From assembly GCA_051532055.1 (NCBI GenBank), contig JAOPTX010000003.1:153064-217063 (forward strand): DNA of 64,000 bases. Direction: 5' to 3'. Each line of letters starts with the position of its first letter. Within the stretch, counting starts at the first letter, position 1. This DNA comes from Fibrobacterales bacterium (lineage in GTDB: Bacteria; Fibrobacterota; Fibrobacteria; Fibrobacterales; JAOPTW01). The translations under genes were made by a program, and so were the position numbers. The notes beneath the pieces were generated by a model that was given only the letters and a program-made list of their open reading frames with translations, searched no databases and was not told the origin of the DNA. Shown piece by piece: positions 2-22,128 of this stretch.

Positions 2-244
2 TTAACACTTGAGGAATACCAATCGGGAATAGGCTGGGTTTTTGTAGAAGAAAAAAATGTAGCAAATGAAGTATCGGATATATGGGGGTTGACCAGTTTC
101 CAGCCGACGACAGGTAAACATGGAATTATACAATTTCCTGTACAAATACAGCCAATTAATGAAATTAAATGGCGATTGAATGGTTCTCAATATGATATAC
201 CTGTGACCACAAACTCAATGAACACTTATAACTTAACTCAATAG
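2..244 (+). CDS. 3' end of an upstream gene cut by the window edge (hypothetical protein)
   Basis: Frame +2 is open from the window edge to TAG at 242-244 (own translation LTLEEYQSGIGWVFVEEKNV...NSMNTYNLTQ*). It ends 7 nt before the next same-strand start at 252. It is absent from the supplied track, presumably because it has no start codon. The antisense ORF 2..190 is probably its shadow. Confidence 0.4.
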   Translation, partial: LTLEEYQSGIGWVFVEEKNVANEVSDIWGLTSFQPTTGKHGIIQFPVQIQPINEIKWRLNGSQYDIPVTTNSMNTYNLTQ

Positions 245-728: not shown

Positions 729-3700
729 TTGTCTATGAATGTAAATGCTCTTTATACAATCTTAATTCTTTTCATTTTTTCTATCAATGCGTACTCGGCC
801 TCTACTATAGGCAATTATGCGGAAATAGGTGATTATATAACTGTTTCGGAGTGGGGTGAGGTGTCTGCTTTGAATGCAGCAAAAACTAAACACTCTAATT
901 CATTTAACTACACCTGTTCTTTAGATGATAGTGAACGTGTAATATCACAGCCATACTTTTTTATTGAGGGAGGCTTTAAATATCTGTTTTTTTTCACTTA
1001 TGATGGGTCCAATAAATATGTGAGACTATATAATGCCACAACTCCAGGGAGTCTATTACCTGTTTTATCAAAAGAGGCTTTAGGCAATGGCCCTCATATT
1101 GTTATTGATACACACCTGTATATCTTTGATACTGATCATATTTCAGCATATACCTTAGCAGACCTTGCGAGTGGGGCTTTGAATGCTACTACAGTTACGG
1201 GGTATACATATTTAAGTCAAGCTCCAAATTTCTTTAAATATTATGAAAATGGCCAATTGGCTGATAAGTTTCAAATGAGTTATCCCAATGGTAAAATTGA
1301 AATATTCACCTTTTCAGATGCATTTACACTAGATGGAAAAAAGACCTATGGGGTAGATCTTGGAGTACGTTCTATTAAAAGTCGCCCAGAATATATTGTC
1401 GAAAAATCATCAAGTAATTCATACTTTGTGTCCATAGATAATTTAGGCGATATCATTACCACAAGTGCAGATGTTCAAGATGAAATTTGGCTTACAGAGC
1501 CATATAATAGTACATCTTTTGATGCAATTGATGTATACCCAGTTGGCGTTGATAACGAAGTTATTCAAATATTATCAAAGGATAATAAACTCTATAACTA
1601 TAACATTTCTTCCAATAAAATAATTGGACAAGAGCATACGTTTCTAATTGCTCCACAAGTAGTTAAAAACATAACAGGGAATACTATCAATTCTAGCACA
1701 ATCGAGTACTCTTCACCAAGCACTGCTTTTGCTTCATACACGTTTGGTGGGTTTAATAGACTTTGGGGGTATTTCCATCATGATGGCTCCTTTAGTTTAT
1801 CTCAATTTAAGGTGACTCCAGAAAAATATTCCCCCACTCTAAATGGACCTCTAATTACAAGTTTCCCCGCATCAGGAAATATAAATGTTACCTATGATCT
1901 TCTAATAAAAGATGCTGTTGGAACTATAGTTAAAACCTGGCCGAAGGCGCCCTTAGCATATGGACAGAATACAATAGATTGGGATGGAATTGACGATAAT
2001 GGAGTTGCAGCAGTCAGTAATAATTATATAATGTCTGCCTTATTTACTATTCCTGGTGGAACAACAGAGCAAGTGGATAAAAATTTCATTCTTGATAGAG
2101 ACCCTGTAACAGATGTTTCCTTAGATTTAATGAAAGGTATTCCAGATATTGAGGTAACAAGTCCTCAATTAGGATTAACAATTAATAATAACCGAGTATT
2201 TGTCTCTTCTATACATAAAATTAATCTTGATTTTTCAAATGTTATTGATGTTGCACCATTTACACAATCTGATCTCTCAGTTGAGCTAACATTACAAGAT
2301 ATAAATCAACCCGTTAAATCATATACCTATAGGTGGGATAAAACAACATTAAATCCTGTAACCCATAGTTTGACTTTAAATGGTAAAACACAAGGTGGCG
2401 TGAATATTCCTGATGGAATATATGATTTGAGTTATAAAGTCATTGATCAAGCAGGAAATGAGTCAACTCTACATTCAGGTTTTAAACTTGAAAATGATCC
2501 AAATCTATATGAAGGTATATATATACTACAAAATGATGTTTCAATTAGTGCAAGAGTTAATCCATTTTTTATTACCGCAAGCGATGCCTATACTGCTAAA
2601 GTTGATATAACGTTGACAGCCCCTCAAGATAAAGTGTATACATTAAATATGTATCTTATTGACGCCCAAGGCAACCAGCAAAGCCTTCCTGGTTTTGTTG
2701 CACAGCAAATCACGTTGTCTTCTGGTTCTGCTACCTATGCACAGACATTCGATTTCTCATCTATTACTCAAACGGGGATGAATCAAATAGTAATAGAGGT
2801 ACTTAATGAAACGTTTAATAAACAGGCAAAAAGTATTCCATTAATTCGTGACCGAATTGAGGCCACCATTATAAGCCCAGAGAATAATGAAACCATATCT
2901 CATAGGTTAGTTGAGATATCTGGTGTTGCAACGGCACCAACATTTGGAACAAAAAATTCAAATAGTATTACTTTTTATAAAGCATATTATTCAGAAGGTG
3001 CCCATACATTAAGTAGTTCGATTACGGAGAAATATAAATTATTCGAGAACATAGCTTGGAAGGCGTTGCCAGTACCATTAAGCCAACAGATTCGAAGTAC
3101 TGATCCTGTTTATAAGCAAATTAAACGGGAAATAGATGCAGAATTTCCAAATTCTAATATATCGGCAGTTGATGTTTCCACAAATGGTGTTTTAGCACTT
3201 TTTGAAAAAAACGAAATATTGAATCAGGAACAATTTACTGTCTTAATAATTTCATCTGAGTTGTTTTCTAATAAGTTGGATTCAGATGGTGATAATATTC
3301 CAGATGCAGTGGACAATTGTCCTTATTTAATTAATAGTGAGCAATTTGATTTGACTAATGATGGGATAGGTGATAAATGCCAGAGCCCTGTGAATAACCT
3401 TCTTGATTCTGATGGTGATGGAAAACTTGATATAGAAGATCTCTGTGTGTATCTAAGTACTGATGTAAAAAAAGATGATGATAATTCAGGACGGGGTGAT
3501 CAATGTGAGTTTATGAATTTACCTGATGATGATGGCGATGGGGTAGAAAATAGTATAGACAATTGTGTTTATCTACCAAATGAACCTCAAATGGATAATA
3601 ATAAAGATGGGATAGGTGATTTATGCCAAACAAATAGCGAAATATTTTCTTATGATTCTAAAGTTTTTAATTATGGCCCTTTTGAAAAAATAAATGCTGA

Positions 3701-6700
3701 ACTCATATTGATGGCAACTCAAGTTTCAAAAAATGTTGATCAGATGAGCCCAATAATCGTAAATCTTGACCCTAGTCATATTGATGCAGAACCAGAGTTC
3801 ACTCAATTGTCACTCACAGCTGATATTATTGGATTTACCACAGATATAGATATGACTGTAGTAAAAGGCCATGTTTCTGATGATAAAAATGGAGGTGAAA
3901 GCCATGAAGTTGTATTTGTACATCCTAAAGTTACGAACAGTACAGGCCCTGCTTCGCTTCTATTTTTGGGCAAAGACTATACTGATAGAACTGTTGATGA
4001 AGGAAACTACACTGCAATTATTGAAGCAAAAAGTAGTGAAATTGGTTTAATGAGACATTATTATCACTTTAGTGTGAGTATCCCTGAGCCTCCGACTAAT
4101 GATGATACACAACTACTTGTTGAACCAGGTCGTATACCTCTTGATTATACTGAAGGCTCCAAACCAAGAATTGATATTGAATTTGATATAAACAAAAAAT
4201 CAGATGTTAAAATTAAAATATTTCACAGTGCTGATTTAGTCAACCCAATCAGAAAATATTCTTTTACCAATAGCAGAACTGAACAATTATCATGGGATTT
4301 TTTAACTGAGCAAGGAGTATATATTGTTGATCAGTTAAATACTGATTCGCCTTTAGTTAATGAAAAAACTTTTGTAGTACAGCTCGTTAAAGGAACAGAT
4401 GTATTAGCAACCCAAAATGTAGTTATAGAAGAAGCAATACCTGAGATTACTTATGCACCAAGTATTTTGGAATACACTCCTAATGCTGCAGGAGTTTGGG
4501 AGGCGGGTATCCATTCAGGTTACAAATTTAAGGCACTCGCAAAAGGTGATCTTCAATTTATACCTAATAAAAATCTTAAACCGGGCATGGAGGTGAGTGC
4601 TAACCAAAAAGTAAGAGTATTTCCAGAAGTTCCTTATCGGATGACTTATTCAAAATACTATAATACTGCATCAATTTTTGCAAATTATGAAATAACTGCA
4701 GAGGGTAGACATGCTGGATATGGTGTATGTTGTTCGGGATCATGGACGTCGGAATTGGCAAAGGATAGTGAAAAAAATCTAATTAAAACTATCGATGGTA
4801 GTGGGCGCTTTGCTTCGACTAATGATGTGACTCCCCAATTTTCTAAAGACCCCAGTTATGTAGCAGGGGAATCAAGCCCTATCTGGTATGGTGATATTGA
4901 ACCATGGTTTGATCAAAGTCAACTGAGTTCTTATGATAAATGGTCTGAGTGCTTAGAGTTTCACCAAGAAGCGTTTGTTATGAACAAAAATAGTTTATCA
5001 ATTAATGAATTGTTATTCCAAGCACGTGTAATGGGGCAAGATGGAGAAGGTGATGATGCTTTTAAAGAAAGAAAAGGGTCGTTACAGCTAGGGGTTAATT
5101 TTGGAAAACTTAACGCTGGTTGTGGTCTAGATTTGGCGCAAGGATATCCAATACCACGATTAGAAAATGAAATGAAGACATGGGGAGCAGTAGGCTACGG
5201 TCCATTTTGGATGGTAAGATCAAATAATTGGAGTACCGACACGTATCATTCTCATAAATTTAATTATAGTAATTGGGATAGAGACGCTGGAGACCCACCA
5301 AGAAATCACGCGTTTTATCCCATGAAATATGTAAATGATTCAATTGACTTTACTCATCCTACCTTATATAAAAGAGATCTTATCATTGATGAACCAATAA
5401 GTTATCAAAATTATTTGAATTATTTGGATGGTGTTGCTGGGAATGATGAAACACTTTTACCTACAATCCCTGATGATTATCCTTGGGACGATGGTATATC
5501 ATTGGGTATGAGATTTGGAATGCGTGGATTTGCTTATACGCACAAAGATGATACTTATTTAAATGGTGGGTCGGGTAATGATGGCTTTACACATTTATTG
5601 CCTGTTATATACCCAAAGGATTTCATAGAAAACTACTATGTAATAGATCGACCTGATAAAGGAGAAACTTTAATTAATAAAATAGGCCATATGTATTGGT
5701 CCAATGAGCAGTTTAGTACCAATAACAGAGATAATATTGGAATATTCCCCATATTGAAAATTGACCTCTCAACTAAAGGGTATACGTGGGATGATATTGA
5801 AGTAGGTTATCCAATTGGTGATGGTACGGGTTTAAATATAGAAAGAAGAAATAATGAACCTGTTGTTGTTACCTATCGTAATGTCTACGAAGAGAGTGAA
5901 ATTGTCGGCAACGATATTGTTATGAGTGTACCTACAAATTTTCAATCAACAGGAGATGCTGCTGACGATGAAATACTCTGTTTTCCTATAAACCAGTGGA
6001 TTAGTGGGACAGAAGGTCTTTTTGAAGAGTTATTACGTAATGTGAAATCAAGAAGTGATGTCGTTCCACCCGATGAATACCCATATGTATTAAAAGAAAC
6101 GTTGCAATTTTCTGCAATTCGACCCTTATCAACCTATATCAATTATGATCAAACTATTGAAACATTGGACCCGAATGATTTTGCGCTCCATTTTAATGAA
6201 GATATTTTTTATAACTTCACCCAATCAGAGATTAATAATTCTGGGTGTCCCAATCCATCCCAATACTCATTAGATGATGTGGTTTATAAACTTACTAATA
6301 GAAATGCACCTATGACCGCTAATTATTGGAGTTCTAAAGATGATCCAGCTTTTGCTGTATATGATGGGTATCTCTATGGTTCAGGTAAATTTAACGAGCA
6401 TGGCTTCAAAACTCAACAAAATGCAATGTCAGAAAATGGTAATGGCTACCGAGGCCTTGTACAAGAGCTCATAAGTAATGTTAATGTAAACTTGGCAATC
6501 CCAACAGAGCAAGGGCCTCAAATTGTATCACCTTTTGTGAATAATAATGGAGCTGTAGAATTTAACTCAAATATTTTACCCTCAAGTCTTGAATGGGTTA
6601 TTGATGTATATCATCATGATGGGGAACAACTTAATGACGCTCTTGAAGTTAAGAATCAAAATGAGGAGGAAATGTTCAATCTAGGATTGGCACTTGATAT

Positions 6701-9700
6701 TACACCCAAGAATTTTGTTGAAATTAGAGGTGCTATACCTAATGCTATTCCTGTGGCTGAATCTGGTTTAAGTAATGATATACACTTTAAGTCTTATCAA
6801 CTTTTTGCTTATGTACCTGTAAAAGAAAAAAATGAAGCGGAAGAAAATTATTCAGAGGCTGAGTATCGATATGAACAAATCTCAGTAAATAAATACTTTC
6901 GGTCTGACCTAGCACTGGATAAATTTGAAGGTGATATCCTCCCACAACGAACGTTAGACTTATGGGACAACAGTGAAACTGGTTCAGTGAATCCCGTATT
7001 AGGATATTGGGATGTGACTCATTTAAATGGTCTTTATGATATTGTATTAAGGATTACGTATGTTGACAATAATAGTGGTAGTACCTATCTCGTAAAAAAA
7101 CCAATTAAAATACAAGTAGGAACAGAATTAGTTGCTGGACTAGAACCAGTAGTTCAGTCTACTTATAAACGTGCTGAATTAAATATGCCAGATGGCTCAT
7201 TTACTTCAGGAGATGTACTTTCAATGTATCCTGTTTCGTATAAGGATTTGTCATTGGGTGATGATTTACCTGATGTTAAACCAATTGGTCCAGTAATAGA
7301 AATTAAAACCACTGGTAGTACTAAAAAGTTCGAAGGTACATCGAAGCCGGTAATAACCTATCAATATAGTGCTCGTGAAATTTTTCAAATGAATGGTCGA
7401 TTGGCGGACTTTGAATTGTACAAAAGTACTAGCGACATCTCTGCATTACGAACTGAATTGCTCACATTTATTAGTACCTATAATGTCTATATGTTGAATG
7501 AAGAGGGGCAATTGGATGAAATGCCAACAATTGGAACACTATCTTCTCATGATTTACCTTCAGAGATTGAAGAACTATCAGTACTACTCACTGCGCCAGT
7601 TTCACACTTTTCTTGGGCTGTTGTGCTTGAAAGTTCAACTCTACCAACATTAACTCATGCCATTATCGAAGGTACGGATGTAATTGTAAAAGGTACGTAT
7701 GGGACACCTATAGTAGGTACCATTCCAACGGATTTGGAACTATATATTCATAAGTTCAATTCTCGTTCTGAGAGCCCAACATATATTAGAGGTATATGGA
7801 GTCCGGTGATCAACAAAACAGGTACTTTTGAATTAAGAATTCCTATTTCGGAATTCTATCCTGGTGATAATTATATATATGCGTCTTATGCAGTGCCAGC
7901 ACCTCAGGTAGCTCAAAATTCAGCTAAAATAAAAGTTGAGATCGAAACTGCACAATTACTAGTAGAAGATATTAAAGCGTACCCATCAGTTTTTGAACCC
8001 CATTGTGAAAAGAATAATTACTCGCTTTCATTTGCTGCGTCTAAATCAGGCATTGCAACACGGTATATACTTGATAACTTTGATAATGTAGTTTCTAAAG
8101 AAGTAGTTGCTATAGACTATGGTATTAATAGATTTAAATGGGATGGGTGTGTAGAGCAATCAACATTAAATTATGGTGAGTATTTAGTTAAATATATTTT
8201 TGAGGGTGCCGGCAGTCAAAACTTTGTCATGGGATTAAAGTTGACAGCATCTGATCAAATTAAATCCGTAAAGAGTATTAATGTAAAGTATTCGAGGTTT
8301 TTGCCTTCAGTCACAAATTCTCGACATTTACAGCACTTTAAAATTTATACACACGGTATTGATGCTGCTTCTGATTTAACCATTAATCTGAGTAGAGAAA
8401 GTGATGCCACTAGTTGGACGCTCACACCAGAATTATGGGAAACAAAAAACAATGAGTTTGTCTATCGTGCTACTTGGAACGGTCTCAATGGAAATACTAT
8501 TGAAGTAGATGATACCTACAAGGTAACTGTTAGCCATTCTACTCAAGGCGTGGTTACTCCATTAAAAAAGGAATTTGAATTATATAGCTCCATTCCCCCA
8601 AGTGTAGCTGTTACCCATAATTTTGGATCAGGTGATGTGCCAAGTACGGTACCAGCAATAGAAGTGCTCTTAACAAATAGTGTGAAAATGGGTGTTGTAC
8701 TTTGGTTAGAATACCTTAATGGTGATATTTTCTCAACTGAATTAGGCAAGAAAGGAACTGCAACAACAAGTGATCGCTATGACGTTGTAAATTCTGGTTC
8801 CAAAAGATATACTGTTAAAATGAAAAATAGCGAATTTCCAACAAGAATATTTGCACAATGGGAAACCGAAGAAGGAGAGTCTGGTTTAGTATCTTCTACA
8901 ATATCGGTAAATTATAATCCTGTTTTAACCGGGATCAATCATGGTAGCCTTGAGATTCAACCTCAAGTGTCTGATGTTTTTAGGTCACATTTTGAAAATA
9001 GAGGTCGGTTTACCGCATATAGCAGATCCACGTATGTTGAGTTTACGAGCTCTCGAGCTGGCGAGGTCCGGTATGTTGTAGAACGTAATGGACAAGTCTA
9101 TCGTAACGACAATTTAGCAATTAGAAGAGGACCGAATAAACTGTTTTGGGATGGAAAAGATGACCAAGGAAACTATGTACCTAAATCAGGGATATATACA
9201 ATTAAGGTCTTTACTCAACCAAGTGACCCAAGTGGTACTGAACAACTAGTTTCATCGTGTACTTATTCAGTTGATGTATATATTGTTCCAGATATAGCTA
9301 TATGCAAAAGTTCTGATCCGATATACACTCAAAATAAAATTACAGATCCCAATAGATTTGTAACTGGATTAATCACAAAATTATCTCAACCATTAGTTGG
9401 GATTACCAATGTTATGGAGTTATCACCCGAAGAAACAGTGGGGTATATGCAATATAATCCTAATGGAATGGTGGTGATTGTAAATGATATTACGCCAAAG
9501 GAGATATTTGATGGTACTCGAGATAATCCTCTATTTAGCTATATAAGGTCAGGCGGTAATGCAGTATTTATCAATTCTTTTCCATTTGCTCACTATGTAG
9601 ATCAATTCGGTAATATTCAAAGTAGCTTAGAACTTTCTCTACTCTTATTAGGTGAAAATGAACAGCAAGGACTTACAGCATTACAAGATAGAATGAATGC

Positions 9701-12700
9701 ATTGTATGCATTGTCTGAAGGTGTCACTCAGTTTGATGGGGCACAAGTTGATGACCTTTCTGCTGTGGTGACCAGCGGAATTTTGAATGCTGGGTTAATA
9801 GGTACAGGTGTACCTCAAAGCTACTTAGTTGAAAATGGTGGTTTGTTTAGTCCTCAATTATTTACTGATCAACAAACATTACCCAATGGTGCTCTCGAAA
9901 CATTTATTCATTCAGGTTACTTTAAGCCAAAGTTTAAAGCTACTGAATTACATAAATCTGGCGCATTTCTAATTATGCATCCATTTGGTTTTGTGATGGA
10001 TAATAGTACTGCAGGGATTCAAAAAGAACAAGAAGTTACTGAGGATGTAGCAAACTCAGTATACAGAAATTTCTTTGCAAATGATTTATATATCTTGTCT
10101 AGAGATGTGAAAATTACTCATAATGATGACAAAATTTTACATAGCGAATCTATTGATATATCAGTAACAATAAACTATAAGGGCAAACACACAATACCTT
10201 CAGTGGAGGTCGTGTTAACAGACCTCAATAACAGCAATTGGACTCAAACACTAAACTATTCTAATATATCTATGGGTAGCAGTGAATCTGAAAGAACACA
10301 AACTATCACCGTTCCAATAGATGCATTAGCAAGTTTTGATAGACATATAGTTACTGTAGATATTACACCGTTTTCTATTAATGTACCTCCTCTGGTGATT
10401 AATGAAGAAGTAGTGTATAATAATCAAACTCAGGCGGTGTATTATGTACAATCAAATATAGCGCCTACTCTTACTATTAATAATATTACTAGTGGATACT
10501 TTGATGGCTTAATCACAGGCCTCGCAACGGGGCTCCCATACGAAGTAAGTGGCTCAATTGTAAATAGTCACGGGCAAGGTGATATTAAGCTAACTACAAT
10601 TCTCAAAGATAATGCCGATAATGGTATTAAATTTTATAGTAGTACTCTTGTAACTACACCTAATTTTACACAAGAAGTATCACCAACTGTAGATCTAGAC
10701 CCTACACATAATTACTCAGTATCTATATCAGCCAAGGATAAATATGATAATCAAACAGATGTTGAATATCTTATCAATATTGATGGTGAACTACCCGTAA
10801 TTACCCAATTGACGTGTGACAATTCACATGTTACCAAAATATTTGGCACTGAAGCGGTACATTATGTCATTGATGATATTGCACGATTTACCTTTGAAGT
10901 ATCTGATAATTTAGGGTTAAAATCTTACACACTAAAACGAGGGCCTGCAGTATTAGTTGATGAGGTATTAAGTGGTGTAACTTCTGGCATTCAGACTTTT
11001 ACATTTCCTACAACTGAAGGAGACTTTACATTTATTACCACTGATAATGCTGGTAATGAAATGAAACGAAACTTCACTATAGTCAATGATGTGGAGAAAT
11101 CTGTGGTTCGTATTTTAAATGTTGGAAATACCTTAATGCATCAAGTCGTTGATGGTACCATAACAATTTCTGAGGATGCATTTATGTATGATGAACCTCT
11201 ATTTGAACATTTCCCATTAGTTGTGAGAGGAACAGATGAAGAAAATGAGTTTATTGAAACAGCACGAAATGATTTCGCTACTATTGGTGTAAATGTCGAT
11301 GAACTTCCAGGATTCAAAATTGGTGACTATAGTACTCATTTTATGCATACTACGACAAAGGCAATGTTCCTAATAGATATTTTTGAAGAACATTTAAATT
11401 CTGTAAAAGTGAAAATTAATGATGATCCAGCTGTTGATGCGAGTACTTTAGATCCATTTCAATCATTATTACCAGCCTCGATGCTCCCAATGTATACTAA
11501 TCATAAATATCATAGATATATTGAATTCGATGGGCTTATTGTAGGGGAAGAATATAACATTAAAGTCATGGTTGAGGATGAATCGGGTAATGTCACTACA
11601 ATAGATTTAAAGTTGGGTAATGCAATAAATAAATCTTATGTTGAAGACCCTCAAGGAGATAGAAGCTCTGCTATAGGTCCCGATTTTGGTGAAGTGTACG
11701 TTTCAACCGCTGAGCATACAGGATTTGGCTCACAAGAAGGTGGAGCATGGGTGTACTTTATGATTTATAGTTACAACAGTGACTTTGCTAACCAAATAAC
11801 TGACAACTATCTGTACATTGATGCTGATAAACTTGAAGTAACTGGCGCACAAGATGTAGGGAGAAACAGTCAAAACTTTGATGGGTTTGAATATCGAGTT
11901 ACATTTGGTTCTGTCGATGTACTTGATAGTGGAAAAGCTACAAATGTTACCCTTGAAGAATGGAATGGAACTGCTTGGGCTGCTTTAAGAGCTACAACAG
12001 AATGGAATGTAAATGCCTCTATACAAATAGATGCTAATCAAATTAATGATGTATGGACTCCACCACGTGGGGAGGGGCATCAGGTGACTCCATCAGATAA
12101 AATAGCGAAAGCACCAGGATCTGTTATAGAAATTGGGGTAAGATTAAATAACATGTATGCAAAAAATGACATCCGTTGGTTTTTAGATGGTGAGTATGAT
12201 GATGTATATAATACAAATACAACCCAGCCTTTCTTGTTTAAGTATATAACAGACGGGTCAAAATATATTGATGGTATCACTAAAGATTGGTATACCGATA
12301 CTCCATTTAATGCATTGAGATCAGATATACTTGTGAGTGCTAAACCTTCAGAAAAAGATATACCAATTCAAAACACATGGGAAGAACAGAAAATATCATT
12401 CTCTATTCTGAATAATGGTTTTACAGATGTTGGTAATGTTTCCTTACGCTATTTTATAAACCTTGGTGGTTGTACAGATGTACGAACATATTTAGATAAT
12501 GTTAATGAAACATTTTGGAAGATAACAACTGATGCCCCAATTCAGGCTAATACACTGGGTAGATATAAAGGATTAGATGATGATATCTATTTTGTTGAAT
12601 TGGAATTTATTACCCGTGTATTAACACCAGGTGCTGAGTTGAAAGGGATCCCTTACTTTACTCTTAAAGGGAATGGTTGTACGACTAGATTCGAAGATAA

Positions 12701-12782
12701 TTTTAACAATCAACTTCCAAACAATGTTGAACTCGTTAATGAGCATAACCGTTCATTATTAAATTCTCAAATTACAGAATAA
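729..12782 (+). CDS. giant secreted multidomain protein (about 4015 aa) with FlgD-Ig-like modules, thrombospondin type-3 Ca-binding repeats and Ig/CARDB-like modules
   Basis: Uninterrupted 12-kb ORF. The likely real start is ATG 735 ([23 protein letters not shown] signal peptide). At least four 'x-W-D-G-x-D-x-x-G-x-x-v-x-x-G-x-Y' FlgD-Ig-type signatures are present ([50 protein letters not shown]). TSP3 repeats [15 protein letters not shown] / [14 protein letters not shown] / [14 protein letters not shown] lie at nt 3279-3629. 'D-x-AGN' Ig-like modules also occur. Confidence 0.9.
   Translation: [4017 protein letters not shown]
3279..3629 (+). repeat. thrombospondin type-3-like calcium-binding repeats (coding, inside the giant protein)
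   Basis: DxDxDGxxDxxDNC(P/V)Y motifs with paired Cys recur over about 115 aa: [35 protein letters not shown] ... [35 protein letters not shown]. Confidence 0.75.
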
Positions 12783-12793
12783 GATATCATATT

Positions 12794-15700
12794 ATGAAAG
12801 ATTATAAAACTATGAAAAATGTAAATAATATCAGTGCTTCAATATTAACTGTTCTACTCGTTGTCATATTAGCAGTCCAACTTGGATTTTCAAGTATCAT
12901 ACGATCTAATGAGCAAGGTATAAACGGAAACCACAATTTTACTTCTGGTGGCCCTGGTGCCCAAATTAGCACTCTGAATGGAAATATGGTTATTACTTCA
13001 ACTGCTGCTGATATTTCTAGGGCTCCCTTAGGTATCCAAGTAAGTCGAAGTTATAATTCTGGGTGGAGAAATGCAACTCAGGCCCACCTAATGGATGTAC
13101 AAAAAGATGGAAAATTTAAAGATGTTGACCGTACTCCTGATGCATTTGATTTTGCACCAAATTTTCTTCAGAGAACATTCTATTATAGACCTGACGTAAC
13201 AGAGAATCCATCAGGATACCAAACATCAGCTCTACTTGCAGGAGCATCAGCTACGTATGCAATAGGTGGTTCGATATTAAACTATACTATAGCACAGCAA
13301 AAAGAGGCCGCCGGTACAACACCGCAACCTAAAACTGGATTAGATCACGCAGCGACAGCAATGACAATTATTAATACTGCTTTTAGCTTAAAAACTCTTG
13401 CAGAAAGCAATGGTGATTTTAATAATGTTCAATCATTTCAAGCAATTAATAATTTATCATCATTTGTTTTAAAGTCAGTGACCGAAAAAGCTACTAAAGA
13501 GACAATTGGTCAAATATCAGGTACTATCGGTGCTGCTCTTACCATGTATTCTGCAGCCAAAACTCTATCAAATGTAGAAGATGGCTCACCAGGAGATGAA
13601 GCTCAAAAGATAGCGGCTGTTACTCAAATTGTTGGTGCCATGGGTAGTATGATGGCAGCAGCGAGCGCGGCTTCTGCAGCTACAGGAGTGGGAATCGCCA
13701 TAACAGCGGCAGTTATAGTTGTTCAGATAACTGCTATGTTAGTAACAATTCAAGAAGTACTTGACGCAAATTTAGATATTGCAGAGTATCGACCTCACCC
13801 ATGGCTTTTTGGGGTTAATGGTTATGTGATGCTCGTGGGGACAAAGTATGAGGATGAAGAGGCTCAATATTCAAATATGTTCGGCGGATATTCGAGTAGA
13901 GAAACCTACCAACACTGTACAGCAAGAAATAAAAATGGTTGTTCTAACTACGAAACTCGTTGGAGAGGTGTTGGCGACCGTTCATCAGGTCATCCTATGA
14001 CTGATATGCAGCTGGTTAAGTCTGACGGTGGATCAACGCGGTTTGTTATGGAAAACCATCATTATCAAATACATAATGATGGCATGCAAGATATTAGATA
14101 TTATAATTATAAATCTTTATCAAATGCAAATTTTAAAGAAATATACTATGTGGATTACCCCCCGTATCAGACAAATGATTGGACTAATGGTATACCGGTT
14201 CATACATCAGATTTATTAGGTGTTGGTGACTATTATATGATAAAAGAACCTAATGGTACTGTAGCGAAATTTGGTGTCTCCAGTGATAAAGGAATATACA
14301 GGCATACTGCACGTAATTATCCAAGAGAAATGTATTGGTCTTTTATAGATGAAATTTCTCATACTATATCAGGACAAGTTATAACGGTTAACCGTGATGC
14401 AACGAGTAAACAAATTACGGAGGTCACACATAGTGCAGATACACGAAGGGTAACTATTGATAGGTCTCCAACTCAAGAAGTTGTTAAAGTAGTAGATGGC
14501 ACAACAGAGTTATCAAAAATTACCTATGATTTCGGCCTTATTGATTACACTTTTTTTAAAGAGACAAAGTATAGAAATGACCCTATCCTTGATGCTTCAG
14601 GAAATCCCGTAATAGATGATGAATCAGGAGAAACAGCAACGAAGACCGTTTCGTATGTATATGAACACAAAGCTCAAATGAAAATGATAACAAAAGAATC
14701 TCGCCAGGTTGATGCATCAAATAGTGCAAAAGATTTGATTAAAAATTATGTGTATGATGAATATGGTAATATGACACAGATAAGTACAACAAATGGTAAT
14801 ACTTACAATTATAGCTATTCCGAACTTGATACTCCTACTGAGGGATTTGTAATGAATGTACTCATGGAAAATGGCGCTAAAACAACATCGTTAAATAAAA
14901 AGTTTACGTATACTGGCTGGTCAATCGGATCAGCTGATGGTTATCAGGATGGTTTAAATGGAACTGTTATGACAACTGACATTGTGACAAGTCTCACACA
15001 CCCCGATCTACCAAATAGTGACTATCCAAATAAACATACTATCTTAGAAAAAACAACGTTTAGGGTATCGCAAGATACTTCAACAATTAGACAAATTAAA
15101 AATGCAACTGAATTTTTAGCAACGGGTACGTCGTCAGAAGAGGTAACGAAATATGGTACTGTGGGAATGCAATTATTGTCTCATCAACTTGGATCTTTTG
15201 GCATTGGTCCAATGATAAGTTACCGATATAATGGTGATTTGTTGACAACGACTATTAAGAGAGAACAATCAAACCTTAATATAGATCCAATAATAACCTC
15301 TTATCACTATGATCACTATGGTAATCAAATAGCAGTATTAAATTCTTCTAAAATAGATATGGATAACTACGATGCTGCCTTTTTTGCTATGCATGCAAAC
15401 CTAAAACCCTATGATTGTATAAACGAAATAGAAGTGTGCGAATGTGATAATCCAAATTATGACCCTGATATTCATCCAGTTTCAGAAAGATTTATGGAGT
15501 GCAAAAATCCTGATGTTCTCAATTGTTATAGTAATTTTCCTACTCTGGTCGACTGTAGATCGAGAGATGTAAACTTTTGTACCGATGTTAATTCAAACCC
15601 AGTAGCCTGTTTGGTTGTTGATCCTCTGTTAAGAAAATGTGAAGTTGTAGAAGAGCCTATTGTAGGGTGCACTGAAGATATATTCGAGCAGAATGTTGAG

Positions 15701-18700
15701 GCTAACAAACAAGCCATTTATACACAAATTAATACACAATTTGGAATCGATTATAACTTACTAACATTTGAAGTAGTAGATATTAACACCTACAGTTTTT
15801 ATGATAGTAAACAAATAGCGGGTAATTTTTATAGCAAACGGTCACTAACAACAACTGAAAGAACAGATCAACGTACAAAGTTTGAATCTAAGTATCCTGG
15901 TGAAATATTGACGGATGCAGATCTTGACATGAGTAACAAAGAGATCTTAAATCCATTGTTTGATCCTAATGCTCTTTATTTACCAGGGATTTTAAACGAG
16001 CAACATACCAGTAGACTTCATCCAGATGAAAATGAACTTCTGAGCTATTCTTTTGGTACTAAATATTCATTGAATACTGATTATCTTCCCATTTCTGAGC
16101 ATAGAATAATAAATGGAAATAGCGCTGATACTGCTCTTATTCTGGTAAAAGAAACAGCATATAATGATCCGGCTAATAGATTTGCTCCAACAGGGAAAAA
16201 AACGTATATAGATGATGGCATGTATGCATATGACTCAACAAAATACGACGCTAAGTATCATCAATACCCTGTAGAAAATCATGTTTATAAAGGTGTTTTT
16301 GATATAAATACAACACCAGCTGCGGTGGGTGATTTTGTTACTACCTTGGTATATAACCCAAAAAACTTTCTTGAGACACAAACTAATCCCAATTTGCAAA
16401 CCACTTCTTTTACTTATGATGATGTAGGGAGGGTTGTCAGCACCTTAAACCCAAATGGTACTACTATTATTACAGAACATAACGATGCTCAAAATTATGT
16501 TATGCAGATCAATTCAACAGGTCAAAAATCAAAAATTGTACAGGATGGGCTCGGTGTTGATAGTACTTTTATTACATACGATAATACTGGTACTCTCACA
16601 CAAACATCAAAAAAAGTCTATAATCAATCAGGTCTTATTTATCAACAAGACAATGATGGACGTGAACTTTTTAATTATTATAGTGACGCTGGCAGATTAT
16701 ACATATCTCAGGTACCAGAAGTAAAGGGAGAGTATACCCGATATATTCAAACAAACTTTGAGTATGATTTTTTAAATAGAACAAAAACTACTATTGATCC
16801 TTTACTTAGAAGAACAATAGAGCACTCTAATAAAAACGGCCAGGCAATTAAAATAGAGTCTGAAAAAACGGGTGGAGGCTTTATTACAACCCAATATATC
16901 TATGATAATTTTGGAAATTTAGTCGAGACAATTGATCCTAATGGCAATAGTGAAACTATGGTATATAATCACATGCAACAACCGACTACGGTGGAGTATG
17001 CTGATCAATATAAAATCGAGTATTTTTACACAAATCAAGGGCGTCTAAAGCGTTTTGATAAAACAGACCTTTCACAAACACCTACAGTCACTACATCTAT
17101 CAAGTACGGTAGGGACGGACTTGATAGAGTTATTGCCGATACCGTTGTGTCAGGGTTAGAGCAGTTGGAAACTTATTACACCTATGATAATGCAACGTTT
17201 AATACTACTACTTATGCATACCCACAAAAACTAGTAGATATCACACGTGATAGTTTAAAGGTTAATTTTAGTTATGATAATTTTGGGAATTTGACTGAAA
17301 AGGTAACCCGTATTTACCCAGGGGCAATTTTTACTTCAGGCCCAACCTATTATGGGTCAATTGGTTATGGTTATAGAGATGATTTTAGTGTTGAAACAAT
17401 GACTATAAATGGTGACCTCGCACTAACATATGGTCGCGACCCCTATTTTAGAAATAATACTATTTCTGGTTCATACAAAAGTGGGGCACTGTTTGATATT
17501 ATTAAATCGGTGACTTTTACGCCTAATAACATGGTGGACCAAGTCGTGTATGGGAATAATATTACCACTACCTATGGGTATGATTCCAATAGGCCTATTT
17601 TAAAAAGTATTGAAGCGACAATGGATAATGCCCATGAGCCATTTTATAAACATATAATTACTAATTTAGGAAAGACAGGAAACATAGAGAGAATACAACG
17701 CCACAATGGGACTGAGGCGGCTTATGAGTATGATAAGTTAGATCGCCTTATATCAGTTGGCTATCCTGATGGTGGTGTTGGGGGGAATAATCTTGTAATG
17801 GCCTATGATAATAATGGTAATATTGAGAGTTTTACCCATGATTTTGGTCAGATAGATTACTTTTATAATACTACAGGAAGTGGCGCTACTATTAAACAAC
17901 AAAATACTCTTATCAAATCACATTCGGCACTAAATGGTTGGGCAGTATATGATTATGATAAAAATAAAAATCGAACGTCAACAAGTTATTACAATAAATC
18001 GAGTGACTTAATAGCCGGCAACACTAATTGGCATGTACGACATGAATATGGATTTGACCTACTGAATAGAATGAAAACCTATGTTAAAAAAACTAAGTCA
18101 GGGCAAAGTGGCATTGAGGCTGTAAGTGAGTATCTCTATGATTATGATATTGATGGAGCTAAATTGGTAACCCATAGAAAAAATGGTGCAGGTTTATACG
18201 AAAAACAAAAAGAGTTTGTCTATGAATGGCCTAATGTAGTGTACGAAGCAGATACAGTTTCTGGCGATAGTTCTTATTTTGTATTCTGGGGTAACGAGCG
18301 TATTGCTGAAGTTAAGATAGAGAGTGAAATGCCGGAAATCTATTTTTACCATAATGATCACCTTGGTACTGTTAACCAGATAACTACAAATGAAGCAATA
18401 CCTTCAGTTGTTGCACGATATACTTTTGATCCTTATGGAAATTTAGAGTCATATCAGGGAAGTTATCACACAAATTATTTTTATACCACCAAAGAATGGG
18501 TTCCTGAAATGGGTATGTACTATTTTGGCGCTCGGTATTATGATCCGCATACATTGCAGTGGATGAGTACAGACCCTCTATTTGAATTTAATTCTCCTTA
18601 TAGTTATGTTGGTGGTAATCCACTTAGATTAATTGATCCTGATGGTAAAGACGCCATATTAACGAAAAATGATGTTGATAATACAATTACTATTGAGTCT

Positions 18701-19222
18701 ACAATTTTTATATATGGGGATGAGGCTTCCGCTGATGTTGCAGAACAGATACAGGGTAATATTATGGACGCTTGGGACAATAAAGAATACATGGATGAAG
18801 AAACAAAGGTAAAATATAAGGTAGTATTAAAATTAAAAGTTGTATCTATGGGGAAAGATAAAGATCCTCTAGCTGCTCATGTTGCAAAGAGAGATGGTAT
18901 TAATTTCATTAAGATAGCTGACCCCAATACTTCTTATGTGAATGCAGCGAATGGTAGAACTGGTGAATGGCGAGGCCCTTCTTCATGGGAAGACTATGAT
19001 AATCCTGCTGCACATGAATTTGGGCATTTGATAAGACTAGATGATAAATACTTTTCTAATAAAGCAGGGTATCCTGCTCATCCAGGGTGGAAAGGGACGA
19101 TTATGGGGGAATCACCAGGTGAAGGTGTTGTAACAGGAAAAGTAATGTGGAATTTACTTAATAAAAGAAAATATGATGTAAATAATCAATTTTTTATCAA
19201 TTCTACAACAACTTATAGGTAA
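12794..19222 (+). CDS. RHS/YD-repeat polymorphic toxin with N-terminal membrane anchor and C-terminal zinc-metallopeptidase-like toxin domain
   Basis: Many YD repeats are present (YDEYGNMTQIS, YHYDHYGNQIAV, FTYDDVGRVVST, YIYDNFGNLVETIDPNGN, YEYDKLDRLISV). The RHS-associated core reads YFYHNDHLGTVNQIT...YTFDPYGN...MGMYYFGARYYDPHTLQWMSTDP...NPLRLIDPDGKD. The N-terminal hydrophobic helix is ISASILTVLLVVILAVQLGF. The gene starts 11 nt after the giant gene. Confidence 0.95.
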   Translation: MKDYKTMKNVNNISASILTVLLVVILAVQLGFSSIIRSNEQGINGNHNFTSGGPGAQISTLNGNMVITSTAADISRAPLGIQVSRSYNSGWRNATQAHLMDVQKDGKFKDVDRTPDAFDFAPNFLQRTFYYRPDVTENPSGYQTSALLAGASATYAIGGSILNYTIAQQKEAAGTTPQPKTGLDHAATAMTIINTAFSLKTLAESNGDFNNVQSFQAINNLSSFVLKSVTEKATKETIGQISGTIGAALTMYSAAKTLSNVEDGSPGDEAQKIAAVTQIVGAMGSMMAAASAASAATGVGIAITAAVIVVQITAMLVTIQEVLDANLDIAEYRPHPWLFGVNGYVMLVGTKYEDEEAQYSNMFGGYSSRETYQHCTARNKNGCSNYETRWRGVGDRSSGHPMTDMQLVKSDGGSTRFVMENHHYQIHNDGMQDIRYYNYKSLSNANFKEIYYVDYPPYQTNDWTNGIPVHTSDLLGVGDYYMIKEPNGTVAKFGVSSDKGIYRHTARNYPREMYWSFIDEISHTISGQVITVNRDATSKQITEVTHSADTRRVTIDRSPTQEVVKVVDGTTELSKITYDFGLIDYTFFKETKYRNDPILDASGNPVIDDESGETATKTVSYVYEHKAQMKMITKESRQVDASNSAKDLIKNYVYDEYGNMTQISTTNGNTYNYSYSELDTPTEGFVMNVLMENGAKTTSLNKKFTYTGWSIGSADGYQDGLNGTVMTTDIVTSLTHPDLPNSDYPNKHTILEKTTFRVSQDTSTIRQIKNATEFLATGTSSEEVTKYGTVGMQLLSHQLGSFGIGPMISYRYNGDLLTTTIKREQSNLNIDPIITSYHYDHYGNQIAVLNSSKIDMDNYDAAFFAMHANLKPYDCINEIEVCECDNPNYDPDIHPVSERFMECKNPDVLNCYSNFPTLVDCRSRDVNFCTDVNSNPVACLVVDPLLRKCEVVEEPIVGCTEDIFEQNVEANKQAIYTQINTQFGIDYNLLTFEVVDINTYSFYDSKQIAGNFYSKRSLTTTERTDQRTKFESKYPGEILTDADLDMSNKEILNPLFDPNALYLPGILNEQHTSRLHPDENELLSYSFGTKYSLNTDYLPISEHRIINGNSADTALILVKETAYNDPANRFAPTGKKTYIDDGMYAYDSTKYDAKYHQYPVENHVYKGVFDINTTPAAVGDFVTTLVYNPKNFLETQTNPNLQTTSFTYDDVGRVVSTLNPNGTTIITEHNDAQNYVMQINSTGQKSKIVQDGLGVDSTFITYDNTGTLTQTSKKVYNQSGLIYQQDNDGRELFNYYSDAGRLYISQVPEVKGEYTRYIQTNFEYDFLNRTKTTIDPLLRRTIEHSNKNGQAIKIESEKTGGGFITTQYIYDNFGNLVETIDPNGNSETMVYNHMQQPTTVEYADQYKIEYFYTNQGRLKRFDKTDLSQTPTVTTSIKYGRDGLDRVIADTVVSGLEQLETYYTYDNATFNTTTYAYPQKLVDITRDSLKVNFSYDNFGNLTEKVTRIYPGAIFTSGPTYYGSIGYGYRDDFSVETMTINGDLALTYGRDPYFRNNTISGSYKSGALFDIIKSVTFTPNNMVDQVVYGNNITTTYGYDSNRPILKSIEATMDNAHEPFYKHIITNLGKTGNIERIQRHNGTEAAYEYDKLDRLISVGYPDGGVGGNNLVMAYDNNGNIESFTHDFGQIDYFYNTTGSGATIKQQNTLIKSHSALNGWAVYDYDKNKNRTSTSYYNKSSDLIAGNTNWHVRHEYGFDLLNRMKTYVKKTKSGQSGIEAVSEYLYDYDIDGAKLVTHRKNGAGLYEKQKEFVYEWPNVVYEADTVSGDSSYFVFWGNERIAEVKIESEMPEIYFYHNDHLGTVNQITTNEAIPSVVARYTFDPYGNLESYQGSYHTNYFYTTKEWVPEMGMYYFGARYYDPHTLQWMSTDPLFEFNSPYSYVGGNPLRLIDPDGKDAILTKNDVDNTITIESTIFIYGDEASADVAEQIQGNIMDAWDNKEYMDEETKVKYKVVLKLKVVSMGKDKDPLAAHVAKRDGINFIKIADPNTSYVNAANGRTGEWRGPSSWEDYDNPAAHEFGHLIRLDDKYFSNKAGYPAHPGWKGTIMGESPGEGVVTGKVMWNLLNKRKYDVNNQFFINSTTTYR
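18647..19219 (+). other. C-terminal toxin tip of the RHS protein (about 190 aa, metzincin/snapalysin-like HExxHxxxxxD)
   Basis: It begins right after the core-terminating DPDG motif (nt 18635-18646). HEFGHLIRLDDKY lies at nt 19013-19051. A candidate Met-turn (GTIMGE) follows downstream. Confidence 0.7.
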
Positions 19223-19705
19223 TTGGTGGCCTCTAGTTTACATTTCCTAGTAGTGATAGCTTTTCTATTTATTATTGGGTGTAATCATAAATCCAATGTT
19301 TGTGAAAGTGATGTTAATAAAAAAAACATTGACCACGAATATTTAGGTGGTGGCTTTATAAAGTGCTCTTATCAGGTAATAAATGATAGTAGTCATTTTG
19401 AAAAGTATTACCTTTCTTCCGAAACTTTTTACCACAGTAAAAATCTGGGTGGTCTTTCGGCATTTTATAAATCTCCTCGACGTGACTATGCTATATTTGT
19501 TAAAAATGAGGATGCTCAGCTATATGTATTTGATTTGGAAAGTGGTGAGGAAAAAATTGTAGATTTTGATGTAGCTATTTTCCCTGTTGAAGTGAAGTGG
19601 TCACAAAATAGCAAGCATGTAGTTGTTCATTATCGAAATGATGATAAATTTTTGGTAACGAAAACAGTTAGAATTGATTTATCAACAGGGGATGCAGAAA
19701 AGTAG
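19223..19705 (+). CDS. putative cognate immunity lipoprotein of the RHS toxin
   Basis: It sits immediately after the RHS stop (TAA 19220-19222). The frame contains no ATG at all, so the start must be TTG 19223 or GTG 19226, with an AGGT Shine-Dalgarno-like element at 19217-19220. A lipobox is present (LFIIGC, Cys20). Size (160 aa) and position are typical of toxin-immunity pairs. Confidence 0.7.
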   Translation: MVASSLHFLVVIAFLFIIGCNHKSNVCESDVNKKNIDHEYLGGGFIKCSYQVINDSSHFEKYYLSSETFYHSKNLGGLSAFYKSPRRDYAIFVKNEDAQLYVFDLESGEEKIVDFDVAIFPVEVKWSQNSKHVVVHYRNDDKFLVTKTVRIDLSTGDAEK

Positions 19706-20075
19706 GAGTATGAGATGCTAAAATTATTTCCCTGATTTTAAAAACTCTCTCCCTTGAGGGCTTTTTATGTCTCTATTTACTTAAAAAGTCCTGACCAAAA
19801 CTTAGGAATTTCAATATTATCAAACTATTCAATATCAGACTCTTTGGCTGTTTCAGAATTATATAGAGGGTTGATAGTAATATATCTACAGCGCCAAAGG
19901 CTATGATTGCCGATAGATGACTGTGTAATGGCTGAACATATGTCTTACCGTTTTTTTAGCATCATAAGTATTACTGAATTTTTCAGTTATCATTAAGAGT
20001 TTGTTCCTAACCGTTTAAATAGTTATTGTCTTATTATTGCTTAATGTTACAGGATGTCAAACAGGTATTTAAAAC

Positions 20076-20852
20076 ATGAAATTGAATGGATATATTAGTT
20101 ACTTATTTACAATCTGTTTTGTCTTTATGACATTACTCACAAATAATTCATACGCCCAATCAGGATCACTTGTTTTTGATGGCACATACGGGTTTTCTAA
20201 AGAGCTGTTCCCCATATCAATTGGCAATATCAAAGTAAAAACGCCGGTTGGTAAAGCGTATGAAGCGTTGCAAGAGGATAATGAATTTCATTACCAGCTT
20301 CATTTACACGGTTATTATTTCCCTTTTGATCATTTGGGTGTCGGGGCTTCATATTTCTCCTCTCAATCCTCAAGTAATTCAGTAGGTATGGATTCAATAG
20401 GATATATACAAACATCCTGGAACCATACTCGGTATGTTGAACACACTCTATTCATAGGATTAGTATCTGCAAGGTATTCAAATGAGATCGGAGCTTCACA
20501 GATAGATGTCGGACTAGGAGTTACTCAACTCAGTGTAAATGGTGTTTACAAAATGAATTCTGAAGGCTCGTTCATGAGTGTTAATGCACATATCTTACGC
20601 GCTACAGAAAAAAAATCTTTTACCTTGCTGTTAGTATATTCAAAAGCATTTCATATCTACTCAAAAATAGCACTGGTGCTTAAAGCACAACTTATCTATA
20701 GTGACTTTGGAAAAATTAATTTCCCCATAGTCAATTTAGATGTTGAAGGCAATCCTGAGGTAGATGATTCTGGTGAGGGTGAAGAGAATGACTCCGTTAA
20801 ATATACCTATTTGCAGGGCAACCTTTCAGCTGGTTTAAGAGTTCAGTTTTAA
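20076..20852 (+). CDS. putative outer-membrane beta-barrel protein
   Basis: Signal peptide ending ...NNSYAQ. Alternating hydrophobic beta-strand pattern throughout. The C-terminus ...SAGLRVQF ends in Phe, as in OMP sorting signatures. Confidence 0.55.
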   Translation: MKLNGYISYLFTICFVFMTLLTNNSYAQSGSLVFDGTYGFSKELFPISIGNIKVKTPVGKAYEALQEDNEFHYQLHLHGYYFPFDHLGVGASYFSSQSSSNSVGMDSIGYIQTSWNHTRYVEHTLFIGLVSARYSNEIGASQIDVGLGVTQLSVNGVYKMNSEGSFMSVNAHILRATEKKSFTLLLVYSKAFHIYSKIALVLKAQLIYSDFGKINFPIVNLDVEGNPEVDDSGEGEENDSVKYTYLQGNLSAGLRVQF

Positions 20853-20960
20853 TTTTTTTTTGAAAAATATCATATCTATATATCGGTAATAAATAAACTT
20901 ATTTGAACAGAATGTATGTTGATTTTTTATGTTTATAAGATACGAATTGGAGGTCAATAA

Positions 20961-22031: not shown

Positions 22032-22128
22032 TGAGATTAAGGGACATTGATTGTAAACACACGTTTACCTTAAAAATATTTTAGAATTTCTAAATTTAAC
22101 ACCTTAAATTTAACCAAGTGAGAGTGGT

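Follow-up and report, generated by a model that had tools for sequence, protein, structure and literature searches.

A giant Sec-exported protein of a Fibrobacterales bacterium with a predicted self-cleavage site as candidate partner of an RHS toxin

In the window analysed here, a 64,000-nucleotide (nt) stretch of contig JAOPTX010000003.1 from a Fibrobacterales bacterium (assembly GCA_051532055.1), a single unbroken open reading frame (ORF) of 4017 codons, counted from a TTG, spans positions 729..12782 of the plus strand, and the question raised by this locus is what a protein of such a size does and whether its large central part, which a preliminary description made from the DNA alone had picked out as the best place for a novel functional domain, holds the answer. 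A 12-kb open frame in DNA of 34–36% GC is not a product of chance. The likely start codon is the ATG at 735, which results in a protein of 4015 amino acids (aa), while all residues are numbered here from the TTG at 729. The NCBI collection holds calls of 4015 and 3970 aa for this giant protein, and the exact protein is deposited as MGL1900704.1, 'MAG: thrombospondin type 3 repeat-containing protein [Fibrobacterales bacterium]' (MAG, metagenome-assembled genome). The explanation that we consider best as a whole, with a probability of about 0.5, is that the giant protein is an accessory partner scaffold of the RHS toxin encoded next to it and undergoes self-cleavage at an H-F-S tripeptide.

The RHS gene starts 12 nt past the stop codon of the giant gene. 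We read the loci of seven relatives of the giant protein (P0002, P0003, P0005, P0006, P0007, P0015 and P0016), which amounts to eight further loci (L002–L009, with L008 and L009 encoding the same protein), and in all eight an RHS gene overlaps the stop codon of the giant gene or starts at most 20 nt from it. The RHS partners are orthologous to each other: a signal peptide, the N-terminal sequence R-H-N-E-Q-G-L-S and a hydrophobic stretch around residue 300 are common to them, and they align up to the DPxG motif, beyond which their C-termini are unrelated, that of L004 being very hydrophobic. At every locus read, the gene of the giant family immediately precedes an RHS toxin gene, and a tight operon of giant gene and orthologous RHS gene with polymorphic RHS C-termini is established. 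The preliminary description had named RHS docking among the possible roles of the central part of the giant protein, and the general link to RHS is borne out by this strong synteny.

The downstream partner displays the repeats, the associated core with DPxG and the variable C-terminus of RHS polymorphic toxins. In the window protein, a DUF6531-like N-terminus precedes the Rhs core, DPDGK at residue 1948 (nt 18635–18652) and the variable C-terminal domain. An HEFGH sequence (nt 19013–19027) occurs in this C-terminal domain (18635–19222), which has no family match and, judged by its sequence, looks like a metallopeptidase toxin. Between the DUF6531-like N-terminus and the repeats we observed an Ala/Gly-rich hydrophobic segment (RHS residues 290–326, nt 13661–13771), which exceeds the threshold of hydropathy both here and in six of the seven other RHS orthologues of the cassette and could be a membrane-interacting or chaperone-bound element. 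Of the superfold of bacterial teneurin-like proteins (FN-plug, NHL propeller and YD shell), Pfam matches to TEN_YD-shell were obtained for the RHS orthologues of L005 and L007 and a faint one to TEN_NHL for the gene that precedes the giant gene in L008; neither domain was found by Pfam in the RHS protein of the window. This L008 gene (137–3541) encodes a 1134-aa YD-shell/NHL-type protein, which is present besides the downstream RHS protein.

Further genes belong to the cassette. The first conserved one visible in the window is DUF2059-like, and its stop abuts the start of the giant gene (729/735). Six of the eight further loci (L002–L007) have a DUF2059 or DUF2059-like gene ahead of the giant gene, directly upstream in L002–L006 (scored as DUF2059 in L003–L006) and further upstream in L007. 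One or two more large genes are found upstream in L002, L003 and L007, and their C-termini carry a module of ~200 aa that corresponds to residues 3650–3854 of the giant protein (BLAST E 2e-7 to 5e-4 for the upstream genes of L002 and L003). This module follows the pattern GP[DE]...Y.D.D...RW[YF]I.G...DG..DW, with D3640, D3652, Y3657, W3745, W3750, R3816/W3817 and W3854 invariant in or near it, and may represent an assembly or sorting module. The truncated ORF at the very start of the window possibly carries it as well, given its weak matches to residues 3740–3835 of the giant protein (E 1e-3) and, in L002 and L003, to the C-terminal ends of the upstream gene products (E 0.03–0.06). On the other side, a 160-aa ORF begins at the RHS stop codon and is followed by a terminator-like hairpin at 19745–19760; a promoter and terminator scan returned sites no more numerous than chance. 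The position of this candidate immunity gene is occupied by non-homologous small ORFs in L003 and L004.

Since the pairing is kept despite divergence of the giant proteins to 20–30% identity, a functional link between giant protein and RHS toxin is likely, and the former is probably a helper that displays or delivers the latter. The neighbourhood would be read differently if the giant protein were a stand-alone adhesin or matrix protein, by which the bacterium might for instance attach to plant fibre or other cells, and if it shared only island and regulation with the RHS gene and its central part were a novel binding domain. FlgD-Ig, Big_13, D-x-AGN and thrombospondin type 3 (TSP3) modules are typical of adhesins, CBM, GH9 or Glucodextran_B domains are encoded near the giant gene in some further loci, Fibrobacter-type carbohydrate-active genes abound in the window, and sugar or calcium binding would agree with the conserved core residues D/N/K/Q/Y/W. 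However, a chance neighbourhood is not expected to persist across all eight further loci at such low identity, with codons that overlap or abut and with RHS partners that are themselves orthologous. We thus regard a stand-alone adhesin as unlikely, albeit as a serious contender.

How widespread and how coherent is the family of giant proteins? An exhaustive HMMER (phmmer) search of 1.84 billion representatives with residues 1240–2130 as query returned 18 matches, namely 16 proteins of 2,784–5,124 aa and two fragments of 275 and 1,939 aa, in small clusters of 1–5 members that are all metagenome-derived. According to BLAST, the relatives are collinear with the giant protein from end to end, P0002 with 31% identity over residues 24–4006 and the others with 20–26% in three or four long blocks. 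The alignment of 17 sequences contains 221 near-invariant columns across its full length and is most conserved at residues 1850–2350. Two pattern scans of 185,579 GTDB species-representative genomes, which used conserved-core patterns in a narrow search, found no relative, so that within the reach of this search the family looks confined to metagenomes and MAGs; a metagenome scan yielded no full-length relatives, just proteins having the module of residues 2087–2312. The family is rare and without a name, and nearly all of its 4,000 residues are family-specific, which is at odds with the earlier picture of the flagged region as an island within a generic adhesin.

The preliminary description had also raised the prospect of a decaying adhesin, to be recognised by fragmentation or absence of the gene in close relatives. 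As the gene is intact in all relatives, this objection fails, and we rejected a pseudogene. That the protein is a decaying or mis-assembled adhesin without current function might be suggested by its origin from a MAG, the low GC content of the island and the rarity of the family, but 16 independent clusters with intact ORFs of 2.8–5.1k aa that are collinear throughout, an unbroken 12-kb frame and near-invariant columns over the whole length make this practically negligible.

The N-terminus of the giant protein from the ATG at 735, MNVNALYTILILFIFSINAYSA/S, reads as a Sec signal peptide, and only this segment reaches a Kyte–Doolittle 19-mer mean of 1.9; the hydropathy scan detected no transmembrane-level hydrophobic segment beyond it. 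The intact frame and its single strongly hydrophobic terminus agree with the 4017-aa protein with signal peptide that had been described. We propose that the intact giant protein is Sec-exported and mostly beta-structured, and it would be located at the surface. We rejected a cargo of the type IX secretion system because the defining C-terminal sorting domain (TIGR04183, Por_Secre_tail) is absent from the NCBIfam and Pfam matches at E up to 0.1.

The region flagged by the preliminary description, nt 4430–6700 or residues ~1235–1991, had been presented as ~750 aa rich in Trp, Tyr, Gly, Asn and Asp that match no known motif. Indeed, searches of Pfam, NCBIfam, PHROGs and PDB sequences with the central core within it (residues 1245–1935) came back empty, both for the sequence alone and for a profile of the family, and a 15-sequence profile of the core likewise retrieved nothing from Pfam or PDB. 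The compositional bias is present but modest, with 6 W per 200 aa in residues 1401–1600 versus 0–5 elsewhere. Conserved motifs are KFYNS (residues 1309–1313), GGxKxGxRGFxY (residues 1593–1603) and GVTWDT (residues 1684–1689), and the polar residues Q1293, K1309, Y1311, N1312, D1582, K/R1595, N1635 and D1688 are near-invariant. Comparison of sub-profiles with hhalign related six Ig-type modules of the giant protein to each other, with up to 98% between pairs, whereas seven segments in residues 1245–2312 reached at most 6% against these modules and against one another. Hence, the central region does not consist of degenerate Ig repeats, a possibility that we thereby ruled out, and by all sequence comparisons made it is a real, conserved and family-specific stretch without known relatives, as the earlier suggestion of a novel domain had it.

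Which role this stretch may have was less readily answered. The conserved residue types are G/W/P/D/N/K/Q/Y, with the invariant positions mostly G, W or P, and the family alignment contains no conserved constellation of His, Ser, Cys or Glu in residues 1245–1935, so that nothing in the core points to catalysis. The suggested enzymatic role was not sustained by this check, and the receptor-binding or RHS-docking roles that had been offered beside it could not be assigned specifically to residues 1245–1935; any role of these residues is one that we infer. A novel enzyme that acts on an extracellular polymer, be it a glycoside hydrolase, lyase or peptidase, would be compatible with a domain that is large, conserved and free of repeats and has D, K, N, Q and Y among its invariant residues, and surface proteins bearing ZU5 domains often have hydrolase domains (Zhang et al. 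2012, PMC3482391). Yet the 15-sequence profile met no enzyme family or PDB entry, and together with the lacking constellation and the prevalence of G, W and P among the invariant positions this renders such an enzyme very improbable.

An AlphaFold2 (AF2) model of residues 1240–1860, built on the family alignment, was weak (predicted local distance difference test, pLDDT, 60; predicted template modelling score, pTM, 0.57) and displayed long beta-hairpins and short helices in a mixed beta/alpha arrangement. The Foldseek comparison recommended earlier gave no significant fold match for this model in PDB or BFVD. The top matches in both libraries (for window positions 4446–6308) were class III viral fusion glycoproteins, namely gB, GP64, thogotovirus Gp and rhabdovirus G, all insignificant (E 0.07–5, probability ≤0.14, TM-score ~0.1), and we treat this resemblance of a model as an unexplained hint and not as evidence. 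It would bear on the idea that the giant protein is a true translocation machine and functional analogue of the TcA subunit of toxin complexes (Tc), whose core would embed itself in the target envelope or fuse with it and let the RHS cargo through. In its favour one may cite the order of an A-like giant gene followed by an RHS cocoon gene, which mirrors tcdA-tcdB/tccC, the long beta-hairpins of the model and the conserved hydrophobic segment of the RHS partner. However, the fold matches stem from a model with a pLDDT of 60, the aromatic hairpin tip (HAGYGVCCSGSW) is not conserved among the relatives, the giant protein has neither a long central helix nor an amphipathic or hydrophobic segment, and TcA domains were not detected, so that we consider a translocation machine quite improbable.

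The most conserved and most mechanistically suggestive feature of the giant protein is the HFS at residues 2293–2295, in a module just beyond the central core and hence just outside the range that had been recommended as the best place to look. It occurs in the context V-x-H-F-S-[WY]-A-x-V-L at the end of the second of two beta-sandwiches, in which R2148, P2185, G2187, P2188, F2201 and H2293 are invariant in 17 of 17 sequences. An AF2 model of residues 1851–2330 (pLDDT 78.6, pTM 0.76, with a pLDDT of ~90 over residues 2050–2300), beta-rich as is the model of residues 1240–1860, places the tripeptide in the turn between two strands of a confident beta-hairpin (pLDDT 88–90); Foldseek found nothing significant for this model in PDB. 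The module of residues 2087–2312 was also retrieved by the metagenome scan from otherwise unrelated large proteins, and the C-terminal part of the preceding domain (residues 1936–2130) recurs in other large proteins as well (L010–L015). The equivalent tripeptide is HFC in L010, GFS in L013 and DFS in L011, and the swap of Ser and Cys at a fixed position after Phe is as expected of a cleavage nucleophile.

Nup98, PIDD and UNC5CL cleave at an HFS sequence. The [H/S]-F-S/C tripeptide between two beta-strands that characterises ZU5, Nup98 and FIIND domains is present in the giant protein, and as in the ZU5/Nup98/PIDD/FIIND proteins an invariant H-F-S sits in an inter-strand turn at the end of a beta-sandwich, with exchange of Ser and Cys at the third position in related modules. 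This likeness suggests a cis-autoproteolytic site of the ZU5/Nup98/FIIND type. Zhang et al. 2012 (PMC3482391) describe ZU5 autopeptidase domains from RHS toxins and from further large surface proteins of bacteria, and the giant protein resembles these as a large surface protein tied to an RHS system.

Joining these observations, we envisage the giant protein as the signature component of a rare conserved cassette with the order large proteins with common C-terminal module, DUF2059-like periplasmic protein, giant protein, RHS/YD-shell toxin and small immunity-like ORF. As an accessory, A-like partner of the RHS toxin, it would form an extended surface or extracellular scaffold, in which the Ig-like, D-x-AGN and calcium-binding TSP3 modules would supply reach and adhesion. 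The family-specific core of residues 1245–2350 would do what is specific to the system, for instance hold the RHS cocoon, orient it or release it at a target cell. Cis-autoproteolysis at H-F-S would split the giant protein into two halves, which might be held non-covalently via a common beta-sheet until force or contact parts them. Both the physical or functional coupling to the RHS protein and the self-cleavage would thus be integral parts of this proposal.

Several observations weigh against it. The RHS link is guilt by association, as it derives from the gene neighbourhood, an outer-membrane export route is evident neither for the giant protein nor for the RHS protein, and residues 1245–1935 are without assignable function. 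Unlike genuine ZU5 domains, the H-F-S module has a helical insert of 35 residues, a cleavage that is predicted only, and no match to Pfam ZU5 (PF00791) even at E 10. A PDB profile search with the module gave no ZU5, the top 50 Foldseek matches of the multi-domain model included none, and hhalign against the ZU5 domains of ankyrin, UNC5B and ZO-1 returned a probability of 2% (P 0.02–0.03), where the register was as expected in just the first half. Moreover, P0003 (L003 10001–21970) possesses HYG at the position of HFS, along with an insertion of 10 residues, and may, to judge from this exchange, be a non-cleaving variant.

We next to this compared the cassette with characterised systems. Like in Tc (TcA with TcB-TcC), a very large 'A' gene lies directly upstream of an RHS/YD-shell gene, the shell encapsulates a variable C-terminal toxin that is released at a DPxG-type aspartyl autoprotease motif, and the toxin domain is variable, unlike the partnership, which is conserved; fibrobacteres are listed among the TcdB/TcaC-type RHS systems by Zhang et al. 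2012 (PMC3482391). Unlike in Tc, Pfam found no VRP1/ABC_toxin_N, neuraminidase-like, TcA_RBD or TcA_TcB_BD domain in the giant protein and nine relatives, the giant protein is beta-rich and not helical as the A component, which forms a pentameric alpha-helical shell around a pore-forming channel, all cassette components carry Sec signal peptides, and SpvB or a beta-propeller was not detected in the RHS partner. Further, the downstream immunity-like ORF suggests a bacterial rather than an insect target. Membership of the giant protein in TcA was rejected because the domains that define TcA are absent, and adjacency to an RHS cocoon gene is a trait in common.

With the WapA and bacterial teneurin-like toxins (Raoelijaona et al. 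2026, PMC13018210), the RHS partner shares signal peptide, YD shell, polymorphic C-terminal toxin and adjacent small ORF as well as a rare and patchy distribution. These proteins have N-terminal adhesion or anchoring domains of their own and no dedicated partner has been described for them, whereas adhesion-type modules of the present system sit in a separate 4,000-aa protein. Fibrobacterota are absent from the phyla reported in that work, according to which Sec-targeted YD-shell toxins have no known delivery machinery. Giant adhesins such as LapA, SiiE and Bap resemble the giant protein in size, signal-dependent export, Ig-like modules and calcium-binding repeats, but recognisable repeats make up only about a quarter of the giant protein, self-BLAST shows no tandem array, a type I secretion signal or retention module is lacking, and the pairing with RHS is strict. 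A functional analogy exists to CdiA/CdiB, in which a polymorphic C-terminal toxin, encoded upstream of its immunity gene, is displayed by a very long filament on the surface; in contrast to these, the cassette has no two-partner secretion (TPS) domain, filamentous haemagglutinin (FHA) repeats or CdiB-type transporter, and the toxin is part of the separate RHS protein instead of the filament tip. Among known systems, TcA with TcB-TcC comes closest in arrangement, and the Sec-dependent YD-shell proteins come closest as toxins.

Outside the core, few parts of the giant protein are recognisable. Pfam identified only FlgD_ig (residues ~390–433 and one more), TSP_3 (residues ~850–970) and a sub-threshold DUF4625, to which NCBIfam added a second FlgD-like stretch (residues 2782–2847). 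The PDB sequence search gave thrombospondin/COMP alone and a 10-member family profile FlgD alone, PHROGs gave no match, self-BLAST no internal repeats, and the scan of nine relatives added only Big_13 and one RbmA-like FnIII match. The first FlgD Ig-like module (PF13860) scores above the gathering threshold (48.2 bits against a cut-off of 27) and is matched in 8 of 10 relatives. Of the FlgD-Ig modules in the preliminary description, those at about 1880–2060 and 9050–9215 were confirmed by Pfam, NCBIfam and PDB profile matches (for residues 2770–2850 by NCBIfam FlgD and the PDB FlgD profile), for the one at 7975–8215 the support is profile–profile comparison (98% to the 9050 module), and none was found at exactly 4200–4330, the nearest detected one being that of residues 1050–1140. 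An invariant Cys pair (C2426/C2474) marks the module of residues 2400–2500.

The TSP3 repeats that had been placed at 3279–3629 stood up well (PF02412, 43 bits against a cut-off of 25; COMP/TSP-2 in PDB, E 7e-16; D-x-D-x-D-G motifs present), and the block is an insertion found in the giant protein and its closest relative P0002 only (alignment occupancy 2–3 of 17). The D-x-AGN modules are likewise real, with motifs invariant in the family. That of residues 500–600 has weak DUF4625 and OmpL47 matches and hhalign probabilities of 41–84% to the FlgD-Ig modules, and that of residues 3370–3460 is matched by Big_13 in 5 of 10 relatives. In contrast, neither the CARDB-like segment at 10084–10380 nor the CBM-like C-terminus was recovered by Pfam or NCBIfam in the giant protein, or by Pfam in nine relatives. 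The N-terminal domain ends, before the first FlgD-Ig module, in an aromatic-His-His motif (F/Y-H-H; FHH here, residues 349–351, nt 1773–1781), whose H350 and H351 are invariant in 15 of 15 aligned sequences. We also observed that residues 2850–3130, e.g. 'MVVIVNDITPKEIF...GGNAVFINSFPFAHYV', are unlike the neighbouring sandwiches; conserved positions there are G2942/G2943, P2952, P3067, P3085 and D3119. The coordinates of all features are compiled in Table 1.

Table 1. Features of the window and of further loci, with coordinates and the evidence for each.
Feature	Position (nt)	Strand	Evidence
3' end of upstream ORF cut by window start	2..241	+	frame 2 open to stop 242-244
DUF2059-like signal-peptide protein, 158 aa	252..728	+	Pfam DUF2059 E 2.8e-4, below gathering score
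Predicted Sec signal peptide, aa 3-25	735..803	+	sequence reading
N-terminal family-specific domain, aa 26-355	804..1793	+	no library match
FlgD Ig-like module 1, aa 360-450	1806..2078	+	Pfam FlgD_ig E 1.1e-12, NCBIfam FlgD, PDB FlgD profile matches
Ig-like module with invariant D-x-x-G-N, aa 500-600	2226..2528	+	D573, G576, N577 invariant
TSP3 calcium-binding repeats, aa 848-969	3270..3635	+	Pfam TSP_3 E 3.6e-11, COMP/TSP-2 PDB matches
FlgD-Ig-like module, aa 1050-1140	3876..4148	+	profile comparison only; hhalign 95% to aa 2770-2850 module
Central family-specific core, aa 1245-1935	4461..6533	+	conserved in 15-16 family members; no library match
Conserved beta-sandwich domain, aa 1936-2130, ending in WDVT..NG	6534..7118	+	most conserved block of the family; AF2 pLDDT mostly 70-96
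Beta-sandwich module with helical insert, aa 2131-2312	7119..7664	+	AF2 pLDDT ~90
H-F-S tripeptide, aa 2293-2295, predicted self-cleavage F2294/S2295	7605..7613	+	H 17/17, F 16/17, S 16/17
Three FlgD-Ig-like modules, aa 2400-2500, 2540-2620, 2770-2850	7926..9278	+	hhalign 93-98% among them
Conserved alpha/beta-looking region, aa 2850-3130	9276..10118	+	sequence reading only; no library match
Ig-like module with invariant D-x-A-G-N, aa 3370-3460	10836..11108	+	D3439, A3441, G3442, N3443 15-16/16
~200-aa module common to C-termini of other cassette proteins, aa 3650-3854	11676..12290	+	BLAST
RHS/YD-shell polymorphic toxin with signal peptide, 2142 aa	12794..19222	+	Pfam RHS_repeat E 7e-11, NCBIfam Rhs_assc_core E 1e-15
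160-aa ORF, lipoprotein-like leader, candidate immunity protein	19223..19705	+	position only; no family match
Three ORFs (258, 356, 165 aa), signal- or lipoprotein-like N-termini	20076-22626		no Pfam/PHROGs match
Several Fib_succ_major-domain proteins, DUF4423 regulator, GH5, GH30, AbfB genes	27159-29522, 32901-34757, 55458-57974		
Upstream large genes with C-terminal module	L002 63-7049; L003 1-9528; L007 6117-10004		BLAST/alignment of module ends

In the window, the cassette and three orphan ORFs, which separate it from a U32 peptidase gene, lie in a section (1–24000) with a GC content of 0.34–0.37 versus 0.38–0.45 in 24000–64000, and this contrast suggests a horizontally acquired island. 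The Fib_succ_major, DUF4423, GH5 and GH30 genes beyond it are typical of Fibrobacterales and agree with the source of the DNA.

What follows for the biology of these bacteria depends on the RHS link. If it were coincidental, the giant protein would be another large adhesin of an uncultured Fibrobacterales bacterium, and its interest is greater as part of a conserved giant-plus-RHS system than as a lone orphan domain. The family offers ~1,100 conserved residues without known fold and a probable new, as yet predicted, bacterial example of HFS-type self-cleavage. At its most far-reaching, the cassette of DUF2059-like, giant and RHS genes might be a new delivery apparatus for Sec-exported RHS/YD-shell toxins in diderms without a type VI secretion system, with the giant protein as a non-homologous TcA analogue whose core engages membranes or docks the cocoon and in which HFS cleavage arms a force- or contact-triggered release; in this full form we hold the proposal to be a doubtful one. 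Sec-exported RHS/YD-shell toxins include the bacterial ancestors of teneurins, and no way for them to reach and enter target cells is known (PMC13018210). A 4,000-residue partner kept beside such toxins is a concrete candidate for the missing delivery machinery, with a defined gene set.

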